A stretch of 64,000 bases of DNA from positions 3,301-67,300 of the forward strand of contig DAINQP010000003.1 of assembly GCA_036742665.1 (NCBI GenBank), given 5' to 3'. The stretch comes from Vicinamibacterales bacterium (GTDB taxonomy: Bacteria > Acidobacteriota > Vicinamibacteria > Vicinamibacterales > UBA2999). Each line of letters starts with the position of its first letter. The stretch's first letter is position 1. The position numbers were made by a program, and so were the translations under genes. The notes beneath the pieces were generated by a model. That model was not told where the DNA came from, did no database searches, and saw nothing but the letters and a program-made list of their open reading frames with translations. Positions 13,162 through 55,579 of the stretch are shown in pieces.

Positions 13162-14256
13162 GTGTTACGCTGCGCGCCCATGGGCTTTTTGATACTCCGA
13201 GGGGTTCGTAGCGCCCTTTGTATTTCAGCAATTTGCTTAGGGCTGGTCATGGCCGGGGCGGTTCCCGCCGCCGCTCAGGCCAGAGGATCGGCGGACGCGG
13301 CGGCTGCCATGCGAGTGAATCCGCATTGGAAGGCGCCGCGTACTGCCTGGGGCCACCCAGACCTTGAAGGCATCTGGACCAGTGACGACATGCGCGGTGT
13401 GGCGATGTCGCGTCAACCGCAATTCGGCACTCGCCTCTACCTGAGTGACGAGGAGTTCGCGGCTCGCGCCAAGCAGCGCCAGAGCGCGCGCGCCGTCGAC
13501 GACGCGAGGACGGGTACGTTCCGCAATGAGGAAGGCTCGCGCGACTTCAGCTACACCTCGATGGTGATCGATCCGCCGGACGGCCGCGTGCCGGCGTTGA
13601 CGCCCGCAGGACAGGCGCGACGCGCCTCTGGTGGTCAGGGATCGTTCGGCGTGGGACCCTGGAACAAGGTCCAGGATTTCTCTCTCTACGATCGCTGCAT
13701 CACCCGCGGCGCGATTGGGTCGTTCATGCCTGCGGTCTACGGCAATGGTGCCCGCATCGTCCAGACGCCGAACGCGGTCGTCATCAGCTACGAGATGGTG
13801 CACGACACGCGCGTGATCCCGCTGGACGACCGGCCGCCGCTCAGCGACAACATCCATCTGTTGATGGGCGATTCGCGCGGGCATTGGGAAGGCGACACCT
13901 TGGTCGTCGAGTCGCGCAACTTCACCGATCGAACGACGGTCGGCGGCGCCCGGCACAGCGAGAAGCTGCATATGACTGAGCGCTTCACGCGAATCGATCC
14001 CGAGATGATCGACTACGAGATCCATGTTGACGATCCCGACACGTTCGTCAAACCGTGGACGATGCGGATGACCATCACGACGCAGCTGGACTATCAGATC
14101 TACGAATACGGCTGCCACGAAGGCAACAACGCGATGCGGAACGCGTTGAGCGCGGAGCGCGCCTACGACAAGGCCGTGGAAGACGCGAAGGCAAAGGGAC
14201 TGCCGCCGCCCGAGCGCGTGTTCGAACGCGTCAACGGAGCCGACCGCGCGCGGTGA
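13162..14256 (+). CDS. Exported protein of unknown function ('DLxGxW ... WEGDTL' family, member 1)
   Basis: 364-aa ORF with a signal peptide (AVPAAAQA). Its motifs are HPDLEGIWTS, YEMVHDTRVIPLDDRP, GDSRGHWEGDTLVVESRNF, LHMTERF and YEYGCHEGNN. An alternative start is ATG 13180. It is related to the products at 49173 and 50361. Confidence 0.75.
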   Translation: MLRCAPMGFLILRGVRSALCISAICLGLVMAGAVPAAAQARGSADAAAAMRVNPHWKAPRTAWGHPDLEGIWTSDDMRGVAMSRQPQFGTRLYLSDEEFAARAKQRQSARAVDDARTGTFRNEEGSRDFSYTSMVIDPPDGRVPALTPAGQARRASGGQGSFGVGPWNKVQDFSLYDRCITRGAIGSFMPAVYGNGARIVQTPNAVVISYEMVHDTRVIPLDDRPPLSDNIHLLMGDSRGHWEGDTLVVESRNFTDRTTVGGARHSEKLHMTERFTRIDPEMIDYEIHVDDPDTFVKPWTMRMTITTQLDYQIYEYGCHEGNNAMRNALSAERAYDKAVEDAKAKGLPPPERVFERVNGADRAR

Positions 14257-14264
14257 TTGGTTAC

Positions 14265-14287
14265 GTAGAGGCTACCTTCAGGCGGCC
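14265..14287. repeat. Degenerate REP-like element (resembles type B in reverse orientation)
   Basis: GTAGAGGCTACCTTCAGGCGGCC compares with the reverse complement of the 39141-39169 element, GTAGAGGCGGGTCTTCAGACCCGGC. Confidence 0.3.
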
Positions 14288-14303
14288 TTTCATCGGAGGA
14301 CGA

Positions 14304-14912
14304 ATGAATCGAATCGTGTTCTCGCTCTTGTTGGTCGCTGGTGTCGCTGCTCCGGCCGCAGCGCAGGCGCCCGCTCCAACCGCACTGCCAGCAGCCGACG
14401 CGACAGTCGTCGCCAACCCGACCTACGTCTCTATTCCGATGGAGATCACGGTCAACAAGCCCGCTGCCGACGTGTGGAAGCGCATCGGCAAGTACTGCGA
14501 TATCGGCGAGTGGTTCCAGATTCCCTGCACGATTACACAGGGCAAGGATGGTGAGTTCGGCGCGGTACGGTCGGTGGCCAACGAAGTACTCGTCGGCAAG
14601 ACCGAGCTGTCGTACACCTACACGCAGCCGGTGCGCGCCGGCCGCCCCTACATCCTCTATCACGGCACGCTCGAAGCACGCCCGGTGACCGCGACGACCT
14701 CGAAGCTGGTCTACACGCTGGTCTATGACAATTCGACGCTGGGCGACGATGCCGCCAAGGAAAAGGATCGGCAGACGCGGACCGCGACGTTCACCCGCGC
14801 GCTGCAGAACATGAAGACGATCGCTGAAGGCGGCACACTGCCTCCTCCGCCGCCGCGCGGTGGCGGCGCAGGCGCGCCGGCTGGTGCACCGCCAGTCAGC
14901 GGACGCAACTGA
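14304..14912 (+). CDS. Exported SRPBCC/START-like (polyketide cyclase-dehydrase fold) protein with a Pro/Gly-rich tail
   Basis: GGAGGA lies 3 nt upstream of ATG 14304. The signal peptide is MNRIVFSLLLVAGVAAPAAAQA. PAADVWKRIGKYCDIGEWF...TYTQP...YHGTLEARP fits the SRPBCC pattern. The track ORF start at 14055 overlaps the previous gene. Confidence 0.65.
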   Translation: MNRIVFSLLLVAGVAAPAAAQAPAPTALPAADATVVANPTYVSIPMEITVNKPAADVWKRIGKYCDIGEWFQIPCTITQGKDGEFGAVRSVANEVLVGKTELSYTYTQPVRAGRPYILYHGTLEARPVTATTSKLVYTLVYDNSTLGDDAAKEKDRQTRTATFTRALQNMKTIAEGGTLPPPPPRGGGAGAPAGAPPVSGRN

Positions 14913-14935
14913 GGCCGACATGCGATGGTACGCAG

Positions 14936-14994
14936 GGGACACCTTCCGCCTTCGCGTCAAGCTACGGCGGACCACCATAGCCTTGGCGAAGGTG
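14936..14994. repeat. REP-like element (type C core) forming a long imperfect hairpin between the SRPBCC and DUF6152-like genes
   Basis: The core CCGCCTTCGCGTCAAGCTACGGCGGACC lies at 14946-14973. The arms CGCCTTCGC (14947-14955) and GCGAAGGTG (14986-14994) pair. Confidence 0.5.
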
Positions 14995-15390
14995 GTGAGG
15001 CGGCCCGTTGCATTCGCGGCCGGCGGCGTCGTGACACTCACGCTGTCGGTCGCGGCGCACCATTCGCATGGCCAGTACGACGAATCGTTCAGGGACATCT
15101 CCGGCGTCGTCAAAGAGATGCACCTGCTGACGCCGCATTCCTGGCTATACATCGAGGTGAAGGATTCCTCGGGCGCACCGCAGGTCTGGGCGCTCGAGGC
15201 GACGACGCGTGCGCAGCTCGAGCAGGCTGGTGTCACACGCGAGTACGTGAAGCCGGGCGATCCGATCAAAGCCCGCTGTCATCCCCTCAGGGACAAGACC
15301 AACGGATGTCTGCTCGGCTTTCTGAAAGCCGCCGACGGCTCGGTCAAGGACTGGGACGGCGGCAACGCTCCCCCACCGAAAGATTTTTAG
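14992..15390 (+). CDS. DUF6152-like small exported protein, copy 1
   Basis: The product reads VVRRPVAFAAGGVVTLTLSVAA|HHSHGQYD...TPHSWLYIEV...WALEAT...GDPIKARCHPLRDKTNGCLLGF. The track start (ATG 14920) would translate the REP element. GTG 14992 gives a signal peptide the same length as copy 2, but the start remains uncertain between 14920 and 14992. Confidence 0.7.
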   Translation: MVRRPVAFAAGGVVTLTLSVAAHHSHGQYDESFRDISGVVKEMHLLTPHSWLYIEVKDSSGAPQVWALEATTRAQLEQAGVTREYVKPGDPIKARCHPLRDKTNGCLLGFLKAADGSVKDWDGGNAPPPKDF

Positions 15391-15398
15391 GATAGGTC

Positions 15399-15423
15399 GT
15401 AGGGCCGGTCGTTCCGAACCGGC
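15399..15423. repeat. REP-like hairpin (type C head)
   Basis: The sequence is GTAGGGCCGGTCGTTCCGAACCGGC, with the stem GCCGGT/ACCGGC. It lies between stop 15390 and ATG 15437. Confidence 0.5.
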
Positions 15424-15436
15424 AGTTGGAGCACGC

Positions 15437-16111
15437 ATGCGCGTCACCGCTCTCGTGTTCGGATTCCTGCTGATCGCCGGCACCGCCCGCGCGCAGGAAT
15501 GGGACGAGTACACCAGCCGTCCAGACGGGTTCCGCATCAACTTCCCTGGCACACCGAAGATCAGCGAGAGTACGTGGACGTCACAACTGAACTACGTGCT
15601 GCCTGATCGGATCTACAGCGCCGAGCGCGGTCGCGAGCGCTATTCGGTCACCGTCGTCGATTACAGCGGTATCGAGCAACAAGGCATCGAGCGTGCGAAG
15701 TCGTGTCCGCCCGGCAATGCCAACTGTCGCGCGAACGCACCGGCGACGCTGGGACCAGGCTACTCACATCACGACGAACGCGGAGCGATCGTTTACGCGA
15801 CCTTCAAGCTGCTGCAGCGCGATGCCAAGCTGAATTATCTGACCTGGGAATGGCAGGACCTCGTCGAAGGCCACATCGTGCAGCTCACCAATGCCGATCA
15901 GTCACGCACGTTCGCGTGGATCGGCATGCACCAGCACAAGCTGTACATCATCGAAGGCACGGTGCCCGCGGGTTTTCCCGAGCCCGGCCTGTTCCAGCAG
16001 TCGATGCAGTGGATCGACAAGAGTGGTAGGCCGATTCGCTATCAGACGCTGTACTCGAATTCATTCCACGCCTTCGGTATCTATCCGGTTCCCGCGATCG
16101 TCGGACAGTAA
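15437..16111 (+). CDS. Exported protein of unknown function ('QEW' family, copy 1)
   Basis: GGAG lies upstream, and the signal peptide ends TARAQEW. It is clearly paralogous to 17184-17909, sharing DGF..NFPG.PK, TVVDY.GIE, TNAD.SRTFA, LYI.E.TV..G.PEP.LF.QS and IRY.TLY. Confidence 0.75.
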   Translation: MRVTALVFGFLLIAGTARAQEWDEYTSRPDGFRINFPGTPKISESTWTSQLNYVLPDRIYSAERGRERYSVTVVDYSGIEQQGIERAKSCPPGNANCRANAPATLGPGYSHHDERGAIVYATFKLLQRDAKLNYLTWEWQDLVEGHIVQLTNADQSRTFAWIGMHQHKLYIIEGTVPAGFPEPGLFQQSMQWIDKSGRPIRYQTLYSNSFHAFGIYPVPAIVGQ

Positions 16112-16129
16112 GTCGCGCGCGTGCCCGTG

Positions 16130-17089
16130 CTATTGGCATCGGCTCGCGCCGGCAGTGTTTCCTTCGCGCGCGCCATCGCGGTAGATTTTGTGACAGTTCG
16201 CGCACGCCTCGTTGAGTTGCTCCGCCACCTTGTTCATCGCATCCACGCTTCTGGACTGTGACGCGCGATACGCGGCGCGGCTGACCTCAACCAGCGACGA
16301 GGTGTACTGCTTCCAGTCGGCGCGATCGACGGGCACCGGCCGGCCATTCTCACACCGGCGGCCCGGCACCAGGAACAGCGGCGCGGTTTCGATCATCGCC
16401 AGCGCCGCCTGATCGACCGCCGACCATCCGTAGTAGACCGTCGAGCCCCAGAGCACATAATCGAACGGGATCGGCATCGCCGGTTTGTCCTTCGCCGGAT
16501 CCTTCACCTGCACGTTGAAGAGGATGTTGGCGTTCGGGAACGTCACCGCGCGCATCAACTGCGCGAGGTTGGCGCTGGGCGCGAATGATGCCGTGCCACC
16601 GGTCGCCGACGCAGGAGCGGTGCGCGTCGGAAACGTGATTTGTCCCAGTTCGGCGGTGCCGAGATCCGACGGTCCTGATGGAAACGTGCCGCTGCGCAAA
16701 ATGAATGCGGTCAGGTCGATGGCTTGCGGCCGCCCCAGACTATCAGGCTGTCCCGGAGGCATGGTCTGTTCGATCTTGTTCACGAGATCGTTCAGGGGAC
16801 GTGCGCTCCACACGGCGAGAAACGCGTCGCCGGCGAGCGGCGGACCAACCACGCCCGCGAGCGTCGCCCCGTGACAATTGGCGCACAGCGTCTGATAGAG
16901 CTGCTGTCCCCGCGTGGCCTGAGTATCTGAATAGACACGATCGGCGATCGATCGCGCTTGACCATGGCCGGCCACCGACAGCGCGGCAATGAGCGCTCCG
17001 GCAGACGTGATTCCGGCCACGTGACGAGAGACGGCCGCGGCACCCCCTCGACGTCGCTCGGGGTGCCCTGAGCGCGAATCGAAGGGCAT
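16130..17089 (-). CDS. Dihaem c-type cytochrome (class I-like N-domain plus a class II-like domain with a C-terminal haem site)
   Basis: It has two CxxCH motifs: LYQTLCANCHGATL (with downstream TMPPG) and NEACANCHKIYRD near the C-terminus. I set the start at ATG 17089 because the track start at 17203 overlaps the divergent gene. Confidence 0.8.
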   Translation of the reverse strand: MPFDSRSGHPERRRGGAAAVSRHVAGITSAGALIAALSVAGHGQARSIADRVYSDTQATRGQQLYQTLCANCHGATLAGVVGPPLAGDAFLAVWSARPLNDLVNKIEQTMPPGQPDSLGRPQAIDLTAFILRSGTFPSGPSDLGTAELGQITFPTRTAPASATGGTASFAPSANLAQLMRAVTFPNANILFNVQVKDPAKDKPAMPIPFDYVLWGSTVYYGWSAVDQAALAMIETAPLFLVPGRRCENGRPVPVDRADWKQYTSSLVEVSRAAYRASQSRSVDAMNKVAEQLNEACANCHKIYRDGAREGNTAGASRCQ

Positions 17090-17098
17090 CACGCGCGG

Positions 17099-17104
17099 AT
17101 TATA
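17099..17104 (-). promoter_or_regulatory. Perfect TATAAT hexamer 9 nt upstream of the cytochrome c ATG (possible leaderless or short-leader transcript)
   Basis: The minus strand reads GCGTATAATCCGCGCGTGATG. I found no convincing -35 element. Confidence 0.25.
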
Positions 17105-17183
17105 CGCTTGCGCGTAGCAGTCGTTTTCGGCAGTATCTCGACACCCTAGGACGTCGAGTTGCGGTTGAAGCCGAGGAGGACAC

Positions 17184-17909
17184 ATGCGCTTCAGACCCCT
17201 CATCCCCGTGGCGTTGATCGTCTGCGCCTCGCAGTCCGCTCTCGCGCAGGAGTGGACGCGCTTCGTCAGCCCTGAAGACGGATTCAGCGCGAACTATCCA
17301 GGCAAGCCGAAAATCGAGACCACCACCTACCTGAGTGAATACCGCCAGACGCTCCCCGCCAAGGTGTATAACGCGGCCGATGCGCTCGGGCGTTATACAA
17401 CGACCGTGGTGGACTATCGCGGCATCGAAAAGCTCCATGCCGACCGCGCCGCGAAATGCCAGGCTTCGAAAGGCGCCAATCAGCAGGACGGCGACACCTG
17501 CCAAAACGACTTCCGTGTAGACGTCGCCGGCGCGACCGATCACGCGGTCTGGAACTACTTGAAGCGTGACGGCGTGAAGATCACGCACTACATGTTTTAT
17601 TTCGTCGAGCTCGTGTCTGGTCGCGCGCTGCAGATGACCAACGCGGACAAGACGCGTTCGTTCGCGGCGATTCATCAGCACGCCGGGCGTCTCTACATCC
17701 ACGAGGCGACGGTATCCCCGGGCATGCCCGAGCCGATTCTGTTCATGCAGTCGCTGGCGTGGGCCGACGACAAGGGATTGGCGATCCGCTATCGCACGCT
17801 CTACACCGAAGGGTACGGCGAGTGGAAGTTTCCACACGAGCCTCCGCCTTTCACCGTTCGCGATCTCAACACGTCCATCGATGGGACCGTGGTGCGGCCA
17901 CCGCGGTGA
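17184..17909 (+). CDS. Exported protein of unknown function ('QEW' family, copy 2)
   Basis: GAGGAGGA lies upstream, and the signal peptide ends SALAQEW. It is a paralog of 15437-16111. Confidence 0.75.
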   Translation: MRFRPLIPVALIVCASQSALAQEWTRFVSPEDGFSANYPGKPKIETTTYLSEYRQTLPAKVYNAADALGRYTTTVVDYRGIEKLHADRAAKCQASKGANQQDGDTCQNDFRVDVAGATDHAVWNYLKRDGVKITHYMFYFVELVSGRALQMTNADKTRSFAAIHQHAGRLYIHEATVSPGMPEPILFMQSLAWADDKGLAIRYRTLYTEGYGEWKFPHEPPPFTVRDLNTSIDGTVVRPPR

Positions 17910-17922
17910 GAGGAGGCGTGAC

Positions 17923-18300
17923 GTGCAACTCAGAGCTTTCGGCGCAGCCGTCTTGTGTGCGGCGGCACTCAACGTCGTGGTGTCCGCTCATCACTCGCAC
18001 GGCAACTACGACGTCACTACCTGGACGGTCATGGAAGGCACCGTCAAACAGATCGTCTTCATCGTCCCCCACTCGATTGTCTATATCGACGTCAAGGGCG
18101 AGACATGGGCGCTCGAGGCGACCAACCCGCAGGGTATCTTTCTGCGCGGCGTCAAGAAGGAAGACGTGCAGGTCGGCGACACCATCAAGGTGCGGTGTCA
18201 TCTGCTTCGCGATGGCGGCAGAGGCTGCCTGCTCGGCTTCGTGACGCCGATGCACGGCGACAAGGCCCGCGGCCACGGCGTCGAGCTCGAGTGGGACTGA
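17923..18300 (+). CDS. DUF6152-like small exported protein, copy 2
   Basis: AGGAGG (17911-17916) precedes GTG 17923. The product reads VQLRAFGAAVLCAAALNVVVSA|HHSHGNYD...VPHSIVYIDV...WALEAT...GDTIKVRCHLLRDGGRGCLLGF. Confidence 0.75.
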   Translation: MQLRAFGAAVLCAAALNVVVSAHHSHGNYDVTTWTVMEGTVKQIVFIVPHSIVYIDVKGETWALEATNPQGIFLRGVKKEDVQVGDTIKVRCHLLRDGGRGCLLGFVTPMHGDKARGHGVELEWD

Positions 18301-19828: not shown

Positions 19829-19841
19829 TCGTAGGCAAGTT

Positions 19842-19856
19842 CTTTGTATCACAAAG
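19842..19856. promoter_or_regulatory. Inverted repeat CTTTGT-ATC-ACAAAG 14 nt upstream of the radical SAM start
   Basis: Seen by eye in the 148-bp spacer between the radical SAM gene and the divergent TonB-dependent receptor gene. Confidence 0.2.
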
Positions 19857-19976
19857 CTGGCGGCCTCCGAAGTCTCGGCGTGCTCGGCAATCGACGGTCG
19901 CACCCACACCCTTCTGGTATAGGCTTAGGCCCCGCGGGCACGATCTCAGCGACTAATTTTCACGGGGAGGACGGTA

Positions 19977-22900
19977 ATGCGGATATTCGTTGCGCGCCTG
20001 ATCGTGCTGGCAGGCGTGCTCCTTCTTCCGGCGTCTGCATTTGCGCAAGCATCGATCGCCGGTACCACCAAAGACGCGTCCGGCGCAGTGCTGCCCGGCG
20101 TCACTGTCGAGGCGTCGAGCCCGGTTCTCATTGAAAAGGTCCGCACGACGGTCAGCGATGACCGCGGCCTCTACCGCATCGTCAACCTGCCGCCCGGCAC
20201 CTACGTTGTGACGTTTACGCTGCAGGGCTTTAACATCGTGAAACGTAACGGGGTCGAGTTGACCGGATCCTTCACCGCAGTGATCGACGCCGACCTCGCG
20301 GTCGGTGGGCTCACCGAAACGATCACCGTGACCGGCGCCTCACCGATCGTCGACGTCACGAGCGTCAGACGTCAAACAACGATCAGCAGTGAGATGCTCA
20401 CATCGATTCCCACTGCGCGCTCGTGGGCGGCGACGGCGCTCTTGATTCCCGGCATCGTGACAATTGGTGGCAGTCCCCCGGACGTCCAGGTGACACCGCA
20501 GATGACGGTGTTCGGCGGCGCTGGCGGACGCAACAACGAAGGCCGCATGCAGGTGGACGGCTTGAACACCGGCGCAGGACTCGGCGGCAGCGGCGTCTCG
20601 ACCTACGTCGCGGATATCTCGAACGCGCAGGAAGTCGTGACGACGACGTCGGGCGGCCTTGGTGAGGCCGAAGTCGGCGGCCCCACGCTCAGCATCATTC
20701 CGAAGAGCGGCGGCAACACGCTCGCCGGCAACATCTATGCGTCTGGAACGGGCGGCGGGATGGTGGGCAGCAACTACAGTCCTGAGCTAGAAGCCGCAGG
20801 GTTGACGACTCCAGGCACGCTGCTCAAACAGTGGGACTTTACGTTCGGCGTGGGAGGCCCCATCCTGAAGGACCGCCTGTGGTATCGCGTTGCGGCCCGG
20901 GACGAAGGACAGCACCGCAAGATTCCCAACATCTACCCCAATCTCAATGCCGGCACGGCCGATAGATTCTATCTGCCCGATCGCACCAAGGAAGTGCGCG
21001 GTGCCGAAAGCTGGCGCTTGTACACGATGCGCCTGACGTTCCAGGCGACGTCGAAAGACAAGATCAACGTTCATTGGGACGAGCAGCACGCGTGCAACGG
21101 CGCGACGTTCAACACCAGTGAGGATGGCTGCCGGCAGCAACCAGACAGCGGCAACCGAATCGGTCCGCTCGGACTCGGCGGACTCAGCCCAACGACGTCA
21201 CCAGAGCTTGGCCAGTATCTCAACGCTCACCCGCGCGTCCGTCAGGTGACGTGGTCGGAAACGGCGACGAACAAGATGCTGTTCGAAGCAGGTTTCGGCG
21301 CGTATCAGGCGCCCTTCGGCCCCTATGAAAGTCCTGGTAATACCACGCGACCGTTTGCGCGCGTCACCGAGCAGTGCGCGGCGGGCTGCACAGCGAATGG
21401 CGGCATCCCCAACCTTACGTATCGCTCGCAGAACTGGTCCGATAGCTGGGACGCGCAGTACACGTGGCGCGCGTCGGTCTCCTACGTGACTGGTGCACAC
21501 AATCTGAAGGTGGGCTACGGCGGTGTCGCGCTGGTGTCGGACCTGCAGGGCTTCACCAACGACAACAACTTGAGCTACACGGTCAACAACGGCGTGCCGA
21601 TCTCGCTGACCCAGAGCCTGCTGCCGTTCACCACGAGCTACCGAACGCGCAACATGTCGATCTTCGTGCAGGATCAGTGGACGCGCGGGCGGATGACGCT
21701 GCAAGGCGCGCTGCGCTTCGATCGCAACTGGAGCAAGTTCCCGGAACAGCGCATCGGCCCGACCAACTTCCTCTCGACCCCGATCGTGTTCCCCGAGACC
21801 GACGGCGTCACTGGCTACAAGGACATCTCACCACGCGGCGGCGTCGCCTATGACCTGTTCGGCAACGGCAAGACCTCGTTGAAGGTGAACTTCGGCAAGT
21901 ATCTCGAGCCGACCAGCAACAACAACAACTACATCCTGTCGAACCCGATCGGCCGCATTGCCACGACCACTTCCCGCTCGTGGACCGACACCAACAACAA
22001 CTTCTTGCCGGACTGCGATTTGAGGAGCCCGGCTGCACAGAGCCCCGCAACGACCGGCTCAGTTGATACCTGCGGTGCGATGAACAGTTCGACGTTCGGC
22101 ACGACGGCGCTGACCACCGCTGCGATCGATCCGAAGATTCTCGAGGGCTGGGGCGTGCGTTCGAACGACTGGCAGATTGGCGTCTCGGTCCAGCAGCAGG
22201 TGCTGCCCCGCGTGTCAGTCGAGGTCGGCTACTTCCGCCGCTGGCTGAACAACTTCACGATCACCGACAACCTGGCGGTGGGTCCGAACGACTTCACCCA
22301 GTACAGCATCACCGCGCCGGCGTATGCGGATCTGCCGGGCGGCGGCAACTACCCCGTGAACGGACTCTACAACGTCGTGCAGGACAAGTTCGGCCAGACG
22401 AGCAACAACATCACGCTCGCTGACGATATCGGCGATCAGTACCAGACCTACAACGGCATGCTGCTCAATGTCAGTGCGAGGCTTGGCCAGGGCCTGCAGT
22501 TCCAGGGCGGCTTCGGCATGGGGAAGACCGTGCAAGACAACTGCGAGGTGCGCGCGCAGGTGCCGGAGTTGACCACGGGCGCGGGCGTCAGCCCCGCGGT
22601 GAACCCGGGCAACCCGTACTGTCACAGCGATCCCGGCCTCATCACGAGAGCCACGGCGCTCGGCAGCTACATCATCCCGAAGATCGACGTGTCGATCGCG
22701 GGAACGCTGCGCAGCGATCAGGGCGGCGTGCTGGCGGCCAACTGGAATGCACCGGTCGCGCTCGTCTCGGCGGCGCTGGGACGTCCGGCCGCGGTCGTCG
22801 GGACGACGGTGCCGATCAACCTCGTGGCGCCCGGCGAAGTCTGGGGCGATCGCGTCAACGCGTTCGATCTGCGATTCGGCAAGATTCTCAGGTTCGGCCG

Positions 22901-23072
22901 CACGCGCTACAACGTCGGGATCGACGTCATCAACGTCACGAACTCAGACGCGACGTTGACGTACAACCAGACGTTCAACACCAACCCGGCCACGCCGGCG
23001 CAGCGCTGGCTCGCGCCGACGTCGGTGCTCACGCCGCGCTTCGTGAAGATCGGCGCGCAGATCGATTTCTAA
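19977..23072 (+). CDS. TonB-dependent receptor-like outer-membrane protein with an N-terminal carboxypeptidase-regulatory-like domain (copy 1)
   Basis: GGGGAGGA lies upstream. The signal peptide ends SAFAQASIAGT. GAVLPGVTVEASSPVLIEKVRTTVSDDRGLYRIVNLPPGTYVVTFTLQGF is the CarboxypepD_reg signature. The 1031-aa product is a beta-barrel ending in KIGAQIDF. Confidence 0.85.
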   Translation: MRIFVARLIVLAGVLLLPASAFAQASIAGTTKDASGAVLPGVTVEASSPVLIEKVRTTVSDDRGLYRIVNLPPGTYVVTFTLQGFNIVKRNGVELTGSFTAVIDADLAVGGLTETITVTGASPIVDVTSVRRQTTISSEMLTSIPTARSWAATALLIPGIVTIGGSPPDVQVTPQMTVFGGAGGRNNEGRMQVDGLNTGAGLGGSGVSTYVADISNAQEVVTTTSGGLGEAEVGGPTLSIIPKSGGNTLAGNIYASGTGGGMVGSNYSPELEAAGLTTPGTLLKQWDFTFGVGGPILKDRLWYRVAARDEGQHRKIPNIYPNLNAGTADRFYLPDRTKEVRGAESWRLYTMRLTFQATSKDKINVHWDEQHACNGATFNTSEDGCRQQPDSGNRIGPLGLGGLSPTTSPELGQYLNAHPRVRQVTWSETATNKMLFEAGFGAYQAPFGPYESPGNTTRPFARVTEQCAAGCTANGGIPNLTYRSQNWSDSWDAQYTWRASVSYVTGAHNLKVGYGGVALVSDLQGFTNDNNLSYTVNNGVPISLTQSLLPFTTSYRTRNMSIFVQDQWTRGRMTLQGALRFDRNWSKFPEQRIGPTNFLSTPIVFPETDGVTGYKDISPRGGVAYDLFGNGKTSLKVNFGKYLEPTSNNNNYILSNPIGRIATTTSRSWTDTNNNFLPDCDLRSPAAQSPATTGSVDTCGAMNSSTFGTTALTTAAIDPKILEGWGVRSNDWQIGVSVQQQVLPRVSVEVGYFRRWLNNFTITDNLAVGPNDFTQYSITAPAYADLPGGGNYPVNGLYNVVQDKFGQTSNNITLADDIGDQYQTYNGMLLNVSARLGQGLQFQGGFGMGKTVQDNCEVRAQVPELTTGAGVSPAVNPGNPYCHSDPGLITRATALGSYIIPKIDVSIAGTLRSDQGGVLAANWNAPVALVSAALGRPAAVVGTTVPINLVAPGEVWGDRVNAFDLRFGKILRFGRTRYNVGIDVINVTNSDATLTYNQTFNTNPATPAQRWLAPTSVLTPRFVKIGAQIDF

Positions 23073-49172: not shown

Positions 49173-49904
49173 TTAGCGAGCCGAACACGGGGTGGGATTC
49201 CACCCCGTCGCATCGGCGAGCTTCTTGAAGTCCGAGCTCGTCGTATAAGAGCGCGCGAAATACTGCGGGTCCTCGACCTTGGTAATGACAGTCAGCCAGC
49301 GGTCGCCGTTCGGCAGCTCATTGAGGTCCCAATACTCGGTAACGGTCGCCTTCTCGCTGTACGGCGCGCCGTTCTTCCGCACGTAGCCCGGACGCAGATT
49401 CGTGGTGACCACCTTGAGATTGCGCGCGGGAATGTTCCACTGCGCGACCGAGTGTCCCTGCCAACTGGCTTCAGACGGAGGCGACGGGGTTCCGAAACGA
49501 AGCATGCGGGTCTGAGTACCGGTATCGGTTTCCACCTTCAGCGTCGTATCGTCCTGCCACGAGATGCGAAGACGGCCTGGCAGACGCATGATTCCGCCGG
49601 CTCCGTAGGCGCGGCATTGCTCCCCTGCCGCTTCATCCTTCGCCGGATCCCAGCTCTCGCCGAGCTTGCGGCCTTCGGCATTGAGCGGGACGGCATCGAA
49701 GACGCCTTTCGCGGGCGTCACCATTCGATACTTCCAGTCTTCGACAATCGGCGAGACCCAATAGCCGGCGAGATCGATCGGTGCCGCCTGGCGAGGCGTG
49801 AGGGCCGGACCACCGGCTCGGCCGCGACCGCCGGCGCGCTGTGCGTCGAGAGAAAGCGAGCATGCGAGGACGCCGCACGTCGTGAGCAACAGGATTCGAT
49901 TCAC
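49173..49904 (-). CDS. Exported protein of unknown function ('DLxGxW' family, short member)
   Basis: The GTG start at 49904 overlaps the upstream TAG by 1 nt (TAGTG). It has a signal peptide. Motifs are IDLAGYWVS, WQGHSVAQW...LKVVTTNLRPGY, ATVTEYW and VEDPQYF. Confidence 0.7.
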   Translation of the reverse strand: MNRILLLTTCGVLACSLSLDAQRAGGRGRAGGPALTPRQAAPIDLAGYWVSPIVEDWKYRMVTPAKGVFDAVPLNAEGRKLGESWDPAKDEAAGEQCRAYGAGGIMRLPGRLRISWQDDTTLKVETDTGTQTRMLRFGTPSPPSEASWQGHSVAQWNIPARNLKVVTTNLRPGYVRKNGAPYSEKATVTEYWDLNELPNGDRWLTVITKVEDPQYFARSYTTSSDFKKLADATGWNPTPCSAR

Positions 49905-50296
49905 TAATCAACGACCTCGTTTGTGCCGCGACCCCACGTGAAGCCATCCGATGGACGCGTGAGGTTGATCATCAACACGCGATACTCGCCCGGCACCCGC
50001 GAGGGCCGTCCACTGATCACCACCTTGTCGCCCACCTTTAGCGAATCGCGTTTGACACCGGCGGCGGCCAGCTGCGTGGTGCCACCCCACTCGATGGCCC
50101 AGCGCTGCGAGACGCCGCTCGCGTCAGGCGCGTCGATGTGGACGAATGAGTGCGGATTCCGATACACGAACTGGACGATGCTGCCTTCGAGCGTGATGGA
50201 CTTGCCGGTCTCGTAGGTCGCGGCAAACGAGTGGTGGGCGAATGACGTCGAGGCGGTCAGCACGGCGGCAATGGTTATCAGCAGGAGTGTGCGCAT
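49904..50296 (-). CDS. DUF6152-like small exported protein, copy 3
   Basis: ATG 50296 gives MRTLLLITIAAVLTASTSFA|HHSFAATYE...NPHSFVHIDA...WAIEWGG...GDKVVISG. The 30-codon track extension would translate a REP element (GPAEAGHY..EAGHY). Confidence 0.75.
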   Translation of the reverse strand: MRTLLLITIAAVLTASTSFAHHSFAATYETGKSITLEGSIVQFVYRNPHSFVHIDAPDASGVSQRWAIEWGGTTQLAAAGVKRDSLKVGDKVVISGRPSRVPGEYRVLMINLTRPSDGFTWGRGTNEVVD

Positions 50297-50308
50297 CGCT
50301 TTCCTCGC

Positions 50309-50360: not shown

Positions 50361-52358
50361 TCAGAGCGTCTTGTAGACCGCCTCAATAAACATGTTCGTC
50401 GTCCAGGGGCCGGTGGTGGCGCCGTAGCGTCCGTCGAAGTCCAGCGTCGGGCGCGCGGCCTTCACCTGCTCGAGCGTCTTACCCTGCTTCTTGAGGTCGC
50501 GGATTCGGTCGCGGATCATCACCAGCATGTTGCGATAGGAGGCGACGTCGGCCGTATCCGACAAACGTCCGCGACCCGGGACGATCCACGTGCCGCCCTG
50601 TGAGCGGTACTCTGCCACCGACAGATCGAGGATCTCATTGAGACCGTCGATGACGCCCTGAATCGTGCCGCCATTCGTCGTGTCGACGAGCGGATAACTG
50701 ATCGTCGAGAACAGGTTACCGGCTGCTATGACTTCCGAGTGACGGAAGAAGACGAAGCTGTCGCTATCCGTGTTGGCCGCCTTCGCGTGATAGAGGATCA
50801 CCGGCTCGCCGTTCACATACTCCGACAGCTTGTAAAAGGCATCGAAGAAGGTGTCAACGGGCCACGCCGCTTCGGGCGCCGCCGCGGCCCTATTCGCCGG
50901 CGTGCTCATCGCCGTCAAGACACCGTCATGGGCAACGATCGTCGCCGCAGTCCCAATCTCGCGCACAGCGCTGCCGAATCCACCAGCGCCGCCCGCGCGT
51001 CGGAAGTTCGCCGAAGCGGCCAGCTTCTCGTTGCCACCGACGTGCTCAGGTGCCGCGCTGGTGTTGATGATGTAGCGGATCGGCCGTGCGGGCCGAGGCG
51101 ACGCGACGACCGCATTGAAGTAGGGACTCGACCAGCTCGGCATCCCCGGACAGTTCGCGCCAAAGCACGTGTTCGTCGCGGGAGGACTCACGACTGATCT
51201 GGCCAGCTCGGTCAACGCCGCGAGAACCTTGTCGGTCATCTGCGCCGAACCGGTGTTGACGATGGCGATGCCGTCGCGGCCGACCGACGCGGTGATGTTC
51301 GTGCCGTCGGCAATCAGGATGTAGACGTTGCCCTGTACCGGCATGACATGGACTTGTCCGTCTCGCGGGCTCTGATCGGCAATGCGCCTGGCGACATCGT
51401 TCGCTGTCTTCGAAACCGGCACCGTCAGGGTGTTCACCGTCGCGCTCTTGGCGAGCACTGCCCGGTACTCCGGATAGATCGTCTTCACGCCACCACGGAT
51501 CGGTTCGAATGGAATCCACGACTGCGTCTTGAGGAACTCGCCGATGCCACTGTTCTGCCCCGGCAGGAAATGCGGCACCCAGTGGCGATCGCGTCCGCCG
51601 TTCTCGGCAAATGACGACCCGCTGCAGTTCTCAGTCGCCGGTCCCGCATTCGGATCGTAGGTGTAGGTGATCGACAGTACGTACGGCTCGTCGAGATAGA
51701 TCGGGTCGTCCACCACCTGCAGAATCGACAGGACGTCGTCGTGGCGGGTGATGTACTCCGTCATCGTCAGCATGTCGGACGTTTGCGGTCCGCCGCGGCG
51801 CAAGTAGCCGTCCTTCAAATGCGTCGTCGTGACCTTCAGCGTCTGACCGATCCATTCGCCGGTGGAGAACCCGCTCCAACTGTGCGGCGCCCACGCCGGT
51901 GGATGTGGACGACCATCGACGAAGATCGGGCGGTCCAGCGAGCGCATGAACTGCACGCGGTAGCCGACGATCTCCCGCGAGATCGGATCGAGATCTTTGA
52001 GAATTCGTGCACCGCCAACGCCGCGCCACTGGTGCGGTGCCGAGTGCGGGCGGCACTGATACTCTGGCGTGCCCCAGATCGATTCGGGTGTGGTGTCGGC
52101 GCGGAGACGTCCCGCCTCGTTGAGCGCGAGACCGAGATAGTCGGCGAGTGGCGGTTGTCCGGGGTCTTCGTTGCTGTCCAGCCGCCATTCTCCGGCGATG
52201 TCGGGTGGCCGCGCACCGCCGCCCTGGGCGGACACACGGAAACTGACCGCAGTGGCGATGGCGAGCGCAAGGAGCACGACCGCCGATCGACTCGCGGACC
52301 CTCGCTCAGGGCAGGCCCGTCGAATTGCAGGCGCTCGCTCATGACAGGCTGGACGCAT
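50361..52358 (-). CDS. Exported fusion protein: 'DLxGxW' family N-domain plus a degenerate metallo-beta-lactamase-fold C-domain
   Basis: ATG 52358 gives a signal peptide ending FRVSAQGG. The N-domain carries DIAGEWRLD, FVDGRPHP, FSTGEWIGQTLKVTTTHL, LTMTEYI and VDDPIYL. In the C-domain, IINTSAAPEHVGGN stands where MBLs have NTHxHxDHxGGN, and AANTDSDS stands where they have GHTxGD. Confidence 0.7.
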   Translation of the reverse strand: MRPACHERAPAIRRACPERGSASRSAVVLLALAIATAVSFRVSAQGGGARPPDIAGEWRLDSNEDPGQPPLADYLGLALNEAGRLRADTTPESIWGTPEYQCRPHSAPHQWRGVGGARILKDLDPISREIVGYRVQFMRSLDRPIFVDGRPHPPAWAPHSWSGFSTGEWIGQTLKVTTTHLKDGYLRRGGPQTSDMLTMTEYITRHDDVLSILQVVDDPIYLDEPYVLSITYTYDPNAGPATENCSGSSFAENGGRDRHWVPHFLPGQNSGIGEFLKTQSWIPFEPIRGGVKTIYPEYRAVLAKSATVNTLTVPVSKTANDVARRIADQSPRDGQVHVMPVQGNVYILIADGTNITASVGRDGIAIVNTGSAQMTDKVLAALTELARSVVSPPATNTCFGANCPGMPSWSSPYFNAVVASPRPARPIRYIINTSAAPEHVGGNEKLAASANFRRAGGAGGFGSAVREIGTAATIVAHDGVLTAMSTPANRAAAAPEAAWPVDTFFDAFYKLSEYVNGEPVILYHAKAANTDSDSFVFFRHSEVIAAGNLFSTISYPLVDTTNGGTIQGVIDGLNEILDLSVAEYRSQGGTWIVPGRGRLSDTADVASYRNMLVMIRDRIRDLKKQGKTLEQVKAARPTLDFDGRYGATTGPWTTNMFIEAVYKTL

Positions 52359-52465
52359 GGTGCGCCGATTATCACTCAAGAAGCGAGCAAATGTGCCTTT
52401 CACGCGTTTACGTGGCTTGACTTTGCGGTGAGGGCGGGATGGAATGCGCCCGTTTGGGAGCATCA

Positions 52466-55400
52466 ATGACCACATCACACATGTCCGCCTTCGTACGAAC
52501 GCTGCTGTGCTCGGCGCTCTGCCTCGGTCTTCCGTCTTTCGTCTTCGCGCAATCCATCGCCGGCACCGTGCGCGACACGTCCGGAGCCGTCCTGCCGGGT
52601 GTCTCCGTAGAAGCCGCGAGTCCAGCACTCATCGAAAAGACGCGGTCGGTCGTCACCGACGCGAACGGTCAGTTTCAGATCATCGACCTTCGTCCAGGCA
52701 CCTACACCGTCACGTTCACGCTGCAGGGATTCACGACCGTTGCGCGGCAGAACCTCGAACTGAGCGGCGGTGGCGTGACGACGGTGAACGGGGAAATGCG
52801 GGTGGGTGGCATTCAGGAAACACTCACGGTCACCGGCGACGCGCCGGTCGTTGACATCCAGACCAGCACCAGTCGTGAGCAGGTGTTGAGCAACGACTTC
52901 GTGCGCGCGCTGCCTGCCTCGCGCGGCTACGGCAACTATCTCGCCGGCGTGCCCGGGATTCAGGGCACGGGACTTGGCGCGAGCGCAACGCCCTCGAACA
53001 ACTTCTTCACGGCACGCGGCGGACGCAGCAGCGAAGGCAACATTCAGATCGATGGCATGAACGTCGGCTCGTCGGTCGGCGGCGGCGGTGTGTCGGGCTA
53101 TCAGTACGACATGTCGAACGCCTCCGAGGTGCAGGTCACCATCGCCGGCGGCCTTGCGGAAGTCGATCGCGGCGGTCCGGCATTCAACATGATTCCGAAG
53201 ACCGGCGGCAACACGTTCAGCGGGTTCTACTTTGCGAGCCTCGCCGGCAAGTGGTCGCAAGGCAGCAACATCGACGCCGAGCTGGAAAGCTATGGGTTCG
53301 TTGACCAGTCGGCGCTGATTCGCAACTGGGACACAAACTTCGCGTTCAGCGGACCAATCCTGCACGACAAAATCTGGTTCTTCGCCAACGCCCGGACCAT
53401 TGGCACGTATCAGGACGTGCCGAACCAGTACGGGAACCTGAATGCGGACAATCCGAATTCGTGGGCCTACGCGCGCGACACCAGCGTGCACGTGCGGAAC
53501 TCCAATTCCAAGAAAGTCATCGCCACACGCCTCACATATCAGGCCACGCCGCGCAACAAGCTCGGGTTCTACGTTGATTACACCAAGAACTGCTCCGGCG
53601 GGTCGTACGCGCCAGACAGCGGTCAATGCCGCTCGCCCGGAGACGGCTGGACGGCGTCGGGTCCTGGCATCGGCCCTGGCGTGCCCACTTCGTCGCCGGA
53701 GTCGGGAACGATCTGGGACCATCCCGCGAAGATCATGCAGGCCACCTACTCGGCGCCGTGGACGAACCGCATCCTCGTCGAAGCGGGCTTCTCCTCGTTC
53801 TGGACCGAGTGGGGCGACATTCGTCCGGAGGGTGCTGCGGTCGATCGGATCGCGGTCACCGAGCAGCTCTCGAACGACCTCACCCAGACGCCCAACTCGA
53901 ACTTCATCTATCACGGCTGGCCGGCCACCTCGGGCACCATTCAGCAGAACGCGCAGTATCGCGCGTCCCTCTCATATGTGACGGGCGCGCATAGCTTCAA
54001 GGCCGGCTATCAGGGCGCGTTGATGATCGCCAAGACGCCGAGCTTCCTCGGTCAGCAGATTAGCTACCGTTTCAACAATGGTGTGCCCAATCAGTTGACA
54101 CAGCGCGTCGGACCCACGCTGACAAGCAACCGAACGTTGCCCGACGCCTTCTTCGTCCAGGATCAGTGGACGAGGTCGCGACTGACGGTGCAAGGCGGCC
54201 TGCGCTACGAGCACGTGCACAGCTATTTCCCGGAGGGCGAGAACGGCGTCATCGAGGCGCATCGTTTCGGGCCCGCGTTCATCTTCCCGAAAACCACCGG
54301 TGTGCGCGGCTACAACGACATCACGCCCCGGATGGGCGCGTCCTACGACCTGTTCGGCAACGGCAAGACGGCGCTGAAAGTCAGCATGAGCAAGTACCTG
54401 CAGGCGGCATTCAATGGTGACGCGTACACGATCAACAACCCCGCGGTCACGCTCCAGCAGACGACCAGCCGTGGATGGACCGATTCCAATCAGAACTTCG
54501 TCGCCGAATGCGATTTCATGAATCCCGCCGCCAATGGTGAATGCCAGGCGTGGACCAACTTGAACTGGGGACAGCAGGGCCAGACGACGGCGGTCAATCC
54601 CGACGTGCAGGAAGGCTGGGGCAAACGCAACTGGGACTGGCAGTTCAGCGCCGGCATTCAGCACGAGCTGATTCCACGCGTGTCGCTCGATGTGAGCTAC
54701 AGCCGCCGGTCGTGGGGCAACTTCTTCGTCACCCACAATCGCGCGCTGACAGCGAACGACTATGACGAGGTCACGCTGACGGCGCCCAGCGATCCTCGTC
54801 TGCCGGGTGGCGGCGGCTATCCGGTGACTTTCCTCGCACGCAACAACAACTCCCTGCTGGGCGCGACCGATCCGTATTACACGTCGACGGCGGATTTCGG
54901 CGACCAGACGAACTACTGGCAAGGTGTGGACGTGTCCGTGAATGCGCGGATGAACAACGGCCTGACCTTCCAGGGAGGCACCAGCAGCGGACGAGGCTAC
55001 AGCGACACGTGCGACGTACTCGTCGGACGCTACGGCAGGCCGATGACGCCGAGTACCGCAACCGTCGCAGCAGCCGGCGTGATCGACGGGCAACCGGCGT
55101 GCAGCGCCGGCGAGCCGTGGCTCACCACCGTCCGCGGCCTCGCGTCGTACACCATCCCCAAGGTTGATGTGCTCGTCAGCGCGATCTTCCGCTCGCAGGC
55201 CAACGTCCAGCCGGGCGCCGACGTCGGGACCAACGGCGCCTCCCGATCGGCGAATTTCGTGATGACGGCAGCACAATTCCTGACTGCCACCGGGCGGCCA
55301 CTGCGCACCGGGGTCACCAGCGAAACCGTCAACATCCTGATGCCGGGAGAGATCTACGGTGATCGGGTGAACAACCTCGACATGCGCGTCGCGAAGGTCC

Positions 55401-55579
55401 TGCGTTTTGGCGGCACGCGCGCGAACGTCGGCGTCGACTTCTACAACCTCACGAACGGGAACACAGGCACAACGTTCGAAGCGGCCTACGATCCGGCCAC
55501 GATGGGCGGGCGGTGGTTGCGGCCGACGGCAGTGCTGCAGCCACGGTTTGTACGGTTCAACGTGCAATTCGATTTCTAG
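52466..55579 (+). CDS. TonB-dependent receptor-like outer-membrane protein with an N-terminal carboxypeptidase-regulatory-like domain (copy 2)
   Basis: GGGAG lies 5 nt upstream of ATG 52466. The signal peptide ends SFVFAQSIAGT. GAVLPGVSVEAASPALIEKTRSVVTDANGQFQIIDLRPGTYTVTFTLQGF matches copy 1. The product ends in RFNVQFDF. Confidence 0.85.
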   Translation: MTTSHMSAFVRTLLCSALCLGLPSFVFAQSIAGTVRDTSGAVLPGVSVEAASPALIEKTRSVVTDANGQFQIIDLRPGTYTVTFTLQGFTTVARQNLELSGGGVTTVNGEMRVGGIQETLTVTGDAPVVDIQTSTSREQVLSNDFVRALPASRGYGNYLAGVPGIQGTGLGASATPSNNFFTARGGRSSEGNIQIDGMNVGSSVGGGGVSGYQYDMSNASEVQVTIAGGLAEVDRGGPAFNMIPKTGGNTFSGFYFASLAGKWSQGSNIDAELESYGFVDQSALIRNWDTNFAFSGPILHDKIWFFANARTIGTYQDVPNQYGNLNADNPNSWAYARDTSVHVRNSNSKKVIATRLTYQATPRNKLGFYVDYTKNCSGGSYAPDSGQCRSPGDGWTASGPGIGPGVPTSSPESGTIWDHPAKIMQATYSAPWTNRILVEAGFSSFWTEWGDIRPEGAAVDRIAVTEQLSNDLTQTPNSNFIYHGWPATSGTIQQNAQYRASLSYVTGAHSFKAGYQGALMIAKTPSFLGQQISYRFNNGVPNQLTQRVGPTLTSNRTLPDAFFVQDQWTRSRLTVQGGLRYEHVHSYFPEGENGVIEAHRFGPAFIFPKTTGVRGYNDITPRMGASYDLFGNGKTALKVSMSKYLQAAFNGDAYTINNPAVTLQQTTSRGWTDSNQNFVAECDFMNPAANGECQAWTNLNWGQQGQTTAVNPDVQEGWGKRNWDWQFSAGIQHELIPRVSLDVSYSRRSWGNFFVTHNRALTANDYDEVTLTAPSDPRLPGGGGYPVTFLARNNNSLLGATDPYYTSTADFGDQTNYWQGVDVSVNARMNNGLTFQGGTSSGRGYSDTCDVLVGRYGRPMTPSTATVAAAGVIDGQPACSAGEPWLTTVRGLASYTIPKVDVLVSAIFRSQANVQPGADVGTNGASRSANFVMTAAQFLTATGRPLRTGVTSETVNILMPGEIYGDRVNNLDMRVAKVLRFGGTRANVGVDFYNLTNGNTGTTFEAAYDPATMGGRWLRPTAVLQPRFVRFNVQFDF

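Follow-up and report, generated by a model that had tools for sequence, protein, structure and literature searches.

The described systems that come closest to the one reported here are CopC/CopD and YcnI/YcnJ, in which a small, exported, beta-rich protein with a histidine as residue 1 stands beside a small polytopic membrane protein. A residue-1 histidine of a secreted protein is a hallmark of histidine-brace-type metal sites, and YcnI uses a (mono)histidine brace. A further point of comparison is CusF, a small periplasmic metallochaperone for Cu(I)/Ag(I) with the oligonucleotide/oligosaccharide-binding fold (OB-fold), whose ligands lie on strands 2-3 together with a conserved tryptophan. A search for residue-1 histidine published in 2025 (PMC12537917) uncovered new bacterial metalloprotein families and linked a conserved N-terminal histidine on secreted proteins to metalloproteins; they include the nickel-binding DUF4198, whose genes neighbour TonB receptors, DUF6702, and the anglerases, which are appended to membrane permeases ("signal strapping"). 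That paper does not mention DUF6152 (PF19649), the family at the centre of the present work, and we found no paper on it under its name, its accession or related terms. Here we analyse a stretch of 64,000 nucleotides from a Vicinamibacterales bacterium (Acidobacteriota; assembly GCA_036742665.1, contig DAINQP010000003.1, positions 3,301 to 67,300), called the window below, and in it a cluster of seven genes at 13162-18300, numbered G1 to G7 from left to right. Our finding is that DUF6152 is the constant, unifying element of a module in which it pairs with one of two further exported families, called QEW and DLW. This role of DUF6152, with its predicted, invariant His-His mature N-terminus, had escaped the initial annotation of the window, which had been made from the letters alone.

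The resemblance of the module to CopC/CopD, YcnI/YcnJ and the DUF4198-type proteins would be one of analogy, with a different fold and extra components. DUF6152 has in common with the proteins of PMC12537917 a conserved histidine right after the signal peptide, and differs from them in its predicted fold, its His-His pair, its partner proteins and its link to a cytochrome. The CopD-like side of the comparison is represented by DUF6644, a small membrane protein with weak matches to CopD and DUF2214. Unlike CopC and YcnI, DUF6152 is modelled as an OB-fold, not as a cupredoxin- or Ig-like sandwich, and has no sequence homology to them; QEW, DLW and a c-type cytochrome have no counterpart in CopC/CopD or YcnI/YcnJ. 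With CusF the common ground is the small periplasmic OB-fold, for which the hhalign register is topologically consistent, whereas the conserved candidate ligands of DUF6152 are histidine and glutamate, with no methionine; the candidate site suggests a harder ion or Cu(II).

All seven open reading frames (ORFs) of the cluster exist as the initial annotation had drawn them (Table 1), and its view that every product begins with a signal-peptide-like segment agrees with a simple heuristic (charged, basic n-region, hydrophobic core, AxA-type cleavage site), which is satisfied by 7 of the 7 proteins; the attachment of c-type haem itself needs export. By their coordinates G1-G2-G3-G4 form one unit, with 46-79 bp between neighbouring genes, and G6-G7 another, with 13 bp; G5 stands between the two on the opposite strand. 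The proposed DUF6152-like pair is well founded: G3 and G7 lie far above the Pfam cut-off of 27 bits, are 46% identical (E 2e-28) and carry the common motifs. The same can be said of the two QEW copies, G4 and G6 (E 4e-49), and of the cytochrome with two CxxCH motifs, G5. Pfam and NCBIfam put names on DUF6152 and the cytochrome and gave no match for QEW or DLW. The SRPBCC-like assignment of G2 stands as a marginal one, since its match to Polyketide_cyc2 spans model positions 4-142 of 142 (E 7.9e-6) and reaches 26.7 bits, slightly below the cut-off of 27.4.

The evidence for DUF6152 as the common denominator begins with its N-terminus. The family has more than 7400 homologues, and among the matches listed a small-x-Ala cleavage site followed by HHS is found in 120 of 120, as are the histidine of a PH motif and a W-x-x-E motif. 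In the three DUF6152 proteins of the window the heuristic cleavage sites read VAA/HH, VSA/HH and SFA/HH, the slash marking the cut, and histidine is predicted to become residue 1 of the mature protein after signal-peptidase cleavage. In an alignment of 55 sequences from three subfamilies the invariant residues (numbered as in mature G7) are H1, H2, S3, G17, P27-H28-S29, W40, A41, E43, G54, G63, R74, G90 and W102. The proteobacterial members, from Sphingomonadales and Caballeronia, keep A/HH, PH, W..E and R, and vary at serines 3 and 29. G3, with the predicted mature N-terminus HHSHG, carries an RCH...GC cysteine pair; G3 and G7 are the cysteine-bearing paralogues of the window, and the third DUF6152 protein belongs to a cysteine-free type that we call D3.

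An AlphaFold2 model of mature G7, of medium confidence (predicted local distance difference test, pLDDT, 74.9), has five strands with a helix between strands 3 and 4 (DSSP: E13-23, E29-35, E38-44, H47-52, E65-73, E79-87), the layout of a classical OB-fold, and Foldseek aligns it with the OB domains of LysRS, TiaS and Stn1 at template-modelling (TM) scores TMq of 0.55-0.64. On this model DUF6152, exported and about 100 residues long, is an OB-fold protein. Sequence searches of PDB chains with G1, G3 and G4 and with DUF6152, QEW and DLW profiles gave nothing meaningful and no solved structure related to QEW or DLW; matches to antibody heavy-chain variable (VH) domains were rejected as spurious.

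The pairing of DUF6152 with its partners is best seen in related genomes. A scan of species-representative genomes with the QEW family found 509 relatives, and a neighbourhood set of 80 loci, each taken with 10 kb on either side, nearly all acidobacterial and labelled L001 onwards, was studied by tblastn and hidden Markov model (HMM) searches; the adjacency counts cover 81 loci and a search for radical-SAM genes 82. The closest relatives of the window, whose G+C content is ~63%, are metagenome-assembled genomes of Vicinamibacterales. In 30 of the 81 loci DUF6152 and a QEW gene are immediate neighbours, and in 12 of these 30 the pair is joined by a cytochrome of the G5 type. Counted from the side of DUF6152, 39 of 64 ORFs adjoin QEW, 19 adjoin DLW and 8 adjoin neither, and we conclude that the neighbour of DUF6152 is nearly always QEW or DLW. 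The families are uncharacterised, no literature on them was found and the synteny extends beyond one genome; the reading of the cluster as an undescribed exported module is supported. The seven genes do not, on the other hand, form one fixed unit as had been supposed, for it is only in the closest relatives (L001, L003 and L004, where the G2 orthologues adjoin those of G1) that G1 and G2 accompany the cluster.

The mirrored order DUF6152-QEW, cytochrome, QEW-DUF6152, which the initial annotation had singled out as a special structure, does not stand out as one in this comparison. The exact order occurs only in close relatives with a G4 identity of at least 75% (L001, L004, L006, L008, L011, L013), and even these usually have an extra QEW paralogue, giving DUF6152-QEW-QEW-cyt(-)-QEW-DUF6152; in L032 the order is cyt-QEW-DUF6152-QEW on one strand, and in L022 cyt-QEW-DUF6152 is convergent with another QEW gene. 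The paralogues are old: within the pairs the identity is 39-46%, against about 80% to the orthologues that each of them has elsewhere. Since the two halves of the cluster share no repeat at the DNA level and each paralogue has these orthologues of its own, we regard the mirrored order as what an old duplication left behind after rearrangement and loss, and not as a structural feature. The additional QEW paralogue of the close relatives (L001, L006, L008, L011, L013) lies between G4 and the cytochrome and is about 55% identical to G4; L001 (10678-11896) also has an ACT-domain gene there, the window has neither, and L001 continues with two PQQ-type GSDH genes and a gene of the animal-haem-peroxidase family.

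The QEW family, whose member G4 has the predicted mature N-terminus QEW, comprises about 1310 clusters at 50% identity. A model of G4 built on 42 diverse members is of high quality (pLDDT 91.7, predicted TM score 0.87), and its best Foldseek match is PsbP (2vu4; E 2.8e-4, probability 1.0, TMt 0.56); CyanoP, SciW, DcrB, LpqN, Mog1, Eag chaperones and Tsi3 are matched as well, most of them extracytoplasmic binding or scaffold proteins. Across these PsbP-like matches the TM scores are 0.40-0.57 and the identities 9-13%, and QEW departs from the PsbP superfamily in its own conserved motifs and its cysteine pair. Because none of the 42 members matches the Pfam profiles of PsbP (PF01789), DUF1795, Mog1 or LpqN at E up to 5, we consider QEW to be a new sequence family with a PsbP-like fold; no member of the QEW or DLW alignments matched anything in Pfam or NCBIfam even at a lax E-value. 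The check by AlphaFold and Foldseek that had been advised for these families yielded a predicted fold for both G4 and G7. A kinship between QEW and DLW was considered and rejected, as just the signal peptides align. The distant QEW genes (up to 62% identity) are mostly solitary or accompanied by QEW paralogues, and two of them sit on contigs of just 1-1.6 kb; no QEW relatives were found on plasmids. Among the long QEW relatives there was no fusion with DUF6152. Three of them (P0363, P0389, P0425) read as QEW-QEW, Ig-like-QEW and QEW-NIPSNAP-like, the QEW domains being confirmed by HMM and the other labels given by eye; several others resemble frameshifted gene calls.

The alternative partner, DLW, is represented in the cluster by G1 and has at least 7942 homologues, none of them named. 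A second cluster at 49-55 kb holds a canonical DLW-DUF6152-DLW set beside a TonB-dependent receptor (Table 1). The third DUF6152 gene, between the two DLW genes on the minus strand, had been overlooked, and the recurrence of the G1 family on either side of it, which had been noticed, is one of distant homology only: the DLW relatives at 49-52 kb were not found by tblastn of the window at E 1e-3, and a pairwise comparison of G1 with the 243-aa protein is not significant. G1 does match the N-terminal domain of the ~629-aa protein (E 2e-8), as does the 243-aa protein (E 7e-13), and jackhmmer over related loci unites all three in one superfamily with the invariant residues W72, C179, R217, G236, E273, D291 and C318. 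The pairing is also found within single ORFs, since L049:2499-3533 (-) (DUF6152, 6.4e-23) and L016:196-1236 (-) carry a DUF6152 domain (HHSAAAYD...) at the N-terminal end and a DLW domain (IAGTW...WEGKMLVVDTTNF) behind it. These ORFs are located immediately downstream of the genes orthologous to those for the 629-aa and 243-aa proteins of the window and are Rosetta-stone fusions. The C-terminal half of the ~629-aa protein (50361-51500, -) weakly matches NCBIfam SoxH_rel_PQQ_2, "quinoprotein relay system zinc metallohydrolase 2", of the metallo-beta-lactamase fold (37.7 bits, cut-off 280); its HxHxDH motif looks degenerate by eye (SAAPEH).

The module is not confined to Acidobacteriota. A tblastn search of 72,556 plasmids with the third DUF6152 gave 12 records, of which seven loci were examined; these were picked through DUF6152 alone and are an independent sample. 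In all seven, DUF6644 and/or DLW stands next to DUF6152, and four of the seven have a TonB receptor no more than 5 kb away (gene orders in Table 1). What this adds to the initial annotation is that DLW pairs with DUF6152 in Proteobacteria as well, in many cases together with DUF6644 and a TonB receptor. In Acidobacteriota, too, DUF6644 follows DLW-DUF6152 pairs, in L008, L013, L016 and L017. DUF6644 (PF20349), to which all 13 members examined belong, is a protein of roughly 160 residues that we read as having four transmembrane (TM) helices, with an invariant histidine in TM1; H31, R48, K101 and a GRW motif are invariant. Weak matches were obtained to DUF2214 (4 of 13, best 2.9e-4), CopD (2 of 13, best 2.7e-3) and UPF0093 (1 of 13, E 0.083).

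A redox protein completes the picture. The N-terminal domain of G5 is a class I cytochrome c (Cytochrome_CBB3 54.8 bits, Cytochrom_C 39.3 bits; CANCH at residues 68-72), and its C-terminal domain, with CANCH at 295-299, weakly resembles cytochrome c': the match to Cytochrom_C_2 covers the last 50 model positions at 20.3-21.8 bits. Like class II cytochromes (c', c-556) it has its CxxCH near the C-terminus, and unlike them it stays below the cut-off (26.5 bits) and is fused to a class I domain. In cytochromes of this type the two CxxCH motifs are about 227 residues apart. The dihaem cytochrome is specifically linked to the QEW-DUF6152 pair, and in L022, a complete Vicinamibacterales chromosome, the three genes form a co-directional operon with gaps of 11-12 bp. 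In Novosphingobium humi a 168-aa protein beside DUF6644 and DUF6152, monohaem with a C-terminal CxxCH, matches the C-terminal domain of G5 (hhalign 87.6%, E 3.5e-6 over 113 columns), so that the link to a cytochrome exists in a second phylum. A second dihaem type, with another CxxCH spacing, occurs within a few kb of QEW-DUF6152 pairs in four loci (Table 1).

We propose, with a probability of about 40%, that the DUF6152 module serves periplasmic metal handling, with an N-terminal-histidine site and a redox partner, and, with the same probability, that the cluster is a version, elaborated specifically in Vicinamibacterales, of a cell-envelope module that is widespread and undescribed. The suggestion of redox or metal handling, or of processing of TonB-imported cargo, in the initial annotation was in the right neighbourhood of ideas. 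DUF6152 would bind a transition metal through the N-terminal amine and imidazole, His28 and Glu43, in a site of the histidine-brace type; copper would be the most likely metal, a choice that is weakly supported and favoured because of histidine-brace chemistry and the CopD-like hint. QEW or DLW would act as docking or specificity partner of DUF6152 in the periplasm, and the cytochrome may change the redox state of the bound metal, for instance Cu(II)/Cu(I), or of a substrate there, which would make possible a hand-over between import at the outer membrane and an acceptor, be it membrane or protein. In the window the genes of the two cysteine-bearing DUF6152 paralogues flank the cytochrome gene, each paired with that of a QEW paralogue.

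Several observations weigh against this proposal. Residues 1-3 of the G7 model have a pLDDT below 50, which leaves the proximity of H1, H2, H28 and E43 unsupported by the model. Homology of DUF6152 to CusF (PF11604) was tried and rejected, at an hhalign probability of 0.8% and with no methionine ligands in the alignment (CusF has a His/Met/Met/Trp site; the CusF query was confirmed as CusF_Ec at 82.3 bits). The matches of DUF6644 to CopD, DUF2214 and UPF0093 are all below the Pfam cut-offs, and the window contains neither a DUF6644 gene nor, according to Rfam, a metal riboswitch. The cytochrome is absent from most loci and adjacent in just 12 of the 30 with a QEW-DUF6152 pair. At the proteobacterial loci the neighbouring regulators are of the TetR and MarR kinds rather than classic metal sensors, and the Sphingobium TomTYG65 locus (L089, plasmid AP027331.1 293835-310056) lies among sulfonate-utilisation genes, a context that hints at sulfur scavenging; taurine dioxygenase, alkanesulfonate monooxygenase, a sulfonate-binding protein, monooxygenases and a peroxiredoxin are encoded there.

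These last points are the natural starting point for a different reading, in which an organic nutrient, perhaps hydrophobic or sulfur-containing, enters by the TonB receptor, is bound or chaperoned in the periplasm by DUF6152, DLW, QEW and the SRPBCC-like protein, and passes to DUF6644, the conserved histidines binding this ligand rather than a metal. TonB receptors are adjacent in both phyla, the left operon includes an exported SRPBCC-like protein, SRPBCC being a hydrophobic-ligand fold, the PsbP-fold relatives LpqN and DcrB handle lipids or lipoproteins, and the tauD, ssuD-like and sulfonate-binding genes around the Sphingobium locus, like the TetR and MarR regulators, fit. We nevertheless think it unlikely: it explains neither why a histidine should be invariant at position 1 nor the linkage to a c-type cytochrome, and the SRPBCC-like gene is kept only in the closest relatives. 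In another alternative DUF6152 is catalytic, a small histidine-brace copper oxidase or peroxygenase comparable to a lytic polysaccharide monooxygenase (LPMO), acting on an envelope polymer or a TonB-imported substrate held by QEW or DLW, with the cytochrome or a haem-b-type DUF6644 as electron donor. The invariant N-terminal histidine and a second histidine would suit a brace, a dedicated cytochrome is operonic with QEW-DUF6152, OB-folds usually bind oligosaccharides and oligonucleotides, a glycosidase-like gene (a weak match, E 0.035) lies upstream of DLW-DUF6152 in N. humi, and HemJ, of the UPF0093 family that one DUF6644 member weakly matches (E 0.083), is a haem-b protein. Such an enzyme, with either kind of target, seems to us less probable still, as the idea is inferential throughout, DUF6152 has no homology to any LPMO family and its OB-fold presumably lacks their flat binding face, no carbohydrate-active enzymes are conserved nearby, and most loci do without the cytochrome.

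One could also dispense with both metal and cargo and see here envelope maintenance or stress proteins, a BOF/YgiW-like OB-fold protein with PsbP/DcrB-like chaperones and an unrelated cytochrome. This accommodates the small exported OB-fold, the structural likeness of QEW to DcrB, LpqN, Tsi3 and the Eag chaperones and the many QEW genes that are solitary or have just QEW paralogues for company; we consider it improbable, for the link to a cytochrome is found again in several arrangements of the genes and, through a related domain, in a second phylum, DUF6152 has no match to BOF (PF04076) in Pfam at E up to 0.1, and the linkage to TonB receptors and DUF6644 would go unexplained. That unrelated genes merely happen to lie together is a view to which the variable gene content between and around the cluster halves might lend itself, but adjacency in 30 of 81 loci, drawn from several lineages of Acidobacteriota, the fusions and the pairing across phyla leave it next to no credit, and we take chance co-localisation to be ruled out by the conserved synteny.

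If periplasmic metal handling is the right reading, its most far-reaching form would be a new OB-fold histidine-brace metalloprotein with a PsbP-like or DLW partner and a dedicated c-type cytochrome, or DUF6644 as a haem/Cu membrane protein, working as a periplasmic redox enzyme or in metal-reducing import; the pathway would be TonB-fed and span Acidobacteriota to Proteobacteria. We consider both parts of this extended form doubtful. Whatever the chemistry, four abundant soil-bacterial families (DUF6152, DLW, QEW and DUF6644) are joined into one envelope module. Should mature DUF6152 bind metal through His1, an OB-fold class would be added to the histidine-brace proteins; a PsbP-fold protein would gain a role outside photosynthesis, and there would be a TonB-dependent metal route in Acidobacteriota, a phylum with many CarboxypepD_reg receptors.

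Table 1. Genes of the two clusters and their neighbours in the window, with related loci (strand as in the window; gene orders for the proteobacterial loci)
Feature	Location	Strand	Remarks
G1, exported 364-aa DLW family protein	13162..14256	+	DLEGIW and WEGDTL motifs; no Pfam family
G2, exported SRPBCC-like protein	14304..14912	+	marginal Polyketide_cyc2 match
G3, DUF6152 paralogue 1, predicted OB-fold	14992..15390	+	Pfam DUF6152 (PF19649) 72.6 bits
G4, QEW paralogue 1, exported, predicted PsbP/Mog1-like fold	15437..16111	+	model and Foldseek
G5, dihaem cytochrome c	16130..17089	-	two CANCH motifs; Pfam
G6, QEW paralogue 2	17184..17909	+	39% identical to G4
G7, DUF6152 paralogue 2, OB-fold model	17923..18300	+	Pfam DUF6152 66.8 bits
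B12-binding radical-SAM gene	18326-19909	-	convergent with G7; best NCBIfam match HpnR/HpnJ (hopanoid), 93 bits against a cut-off of 650
CarboxypepD_reg TonB-dependent receptor	19977..23072	+	41% identical to the 52439-55579 receptor; 1.7 kb from G7
243-aa exported DLW-superfamily protein	49173..49904	-	directly downstream of third DUF6152 gene
Third DUF6152 gene, D3 type	49904..50299	-	predicted mature N-terminus HHSFA; 85.7 bits
~629-aa protein, DLW-superfamily N-domain	50361..52250	-	C-terminal domain weakly SoxH-like
CarboxypepD_reg TonB-dependent receptor	52439..55579	+	divergent from second DUF6152 cluster
DUF6644 genes in related loci	L008:17246-17734, L016:7100-8116, L017, L013; L085, L087-L091		beside DUF6152
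Second dihaem cytochrome type	L005:12380-13534, L011:8178-9479, L012:10652-11773, L023:14118-15170		CxxCH spacing 151-158 residues
Novosphingobium humi			hyp431-DLW-DUF6152-TetR, divergent from cyt-like-DUF6644-DUF6644
Croceibacterium atlanticum			DUF6152-DUF6152-DLW-TonB receptor-MarR
Sphingobium TomTYG65			DLW-DUF6152-DLW-DUF6152, convergent with DUF6644-DUF6644-TonB receptor on opposite strand
Novosphingobium KACC 22771			DLW-DUF6152-DLW-DUF6152, convergent with DUF6644-DUF6644 on opposite strand; TonB receptor 3.2 kb on
Novosphingobium PP1Y			same families in another order
Caballeronia grimmiae			DUF6152-DUF6644
Azospirillum brasilense Sp7			DUF6152-DUF6644

As to the surroundings of the first cluster, the radical-SAM gene, the CarboxypepD_reg receptor and an SGL propeller do follow it, as had been noted. 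The radical-SAM gene has a counterpart in 0 of 82 related loci, and because of this we do not regard it as a conserved neighbour of the module; the tie of the receptor at 19977-23072 to the cluster is suggestive only. Promoter and terminator scans of the window were at shuffle level, and single-linkage clustering of neighbouring ORFs was too noisy to bring out further conserved families. A 23-nt inverted match (87%) between 16039-16061, at the 3' end of G4, and 16876-16898, inside G5, is probably due to chance. Upstream, a hybrid histidine kinase/response-regulator gene (11181-13106, +) ends 55 bp before G1, and its orthologue in L004 (71% identity) lies ~4 kb upstream of that of G1; it is a possible regulator of the left operon. 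Finally, the window carries at 24201-25337 (-) a gene for a type IB topoisomerase of the bacterial kind (Topoisom_I and Top1B_N_bact).

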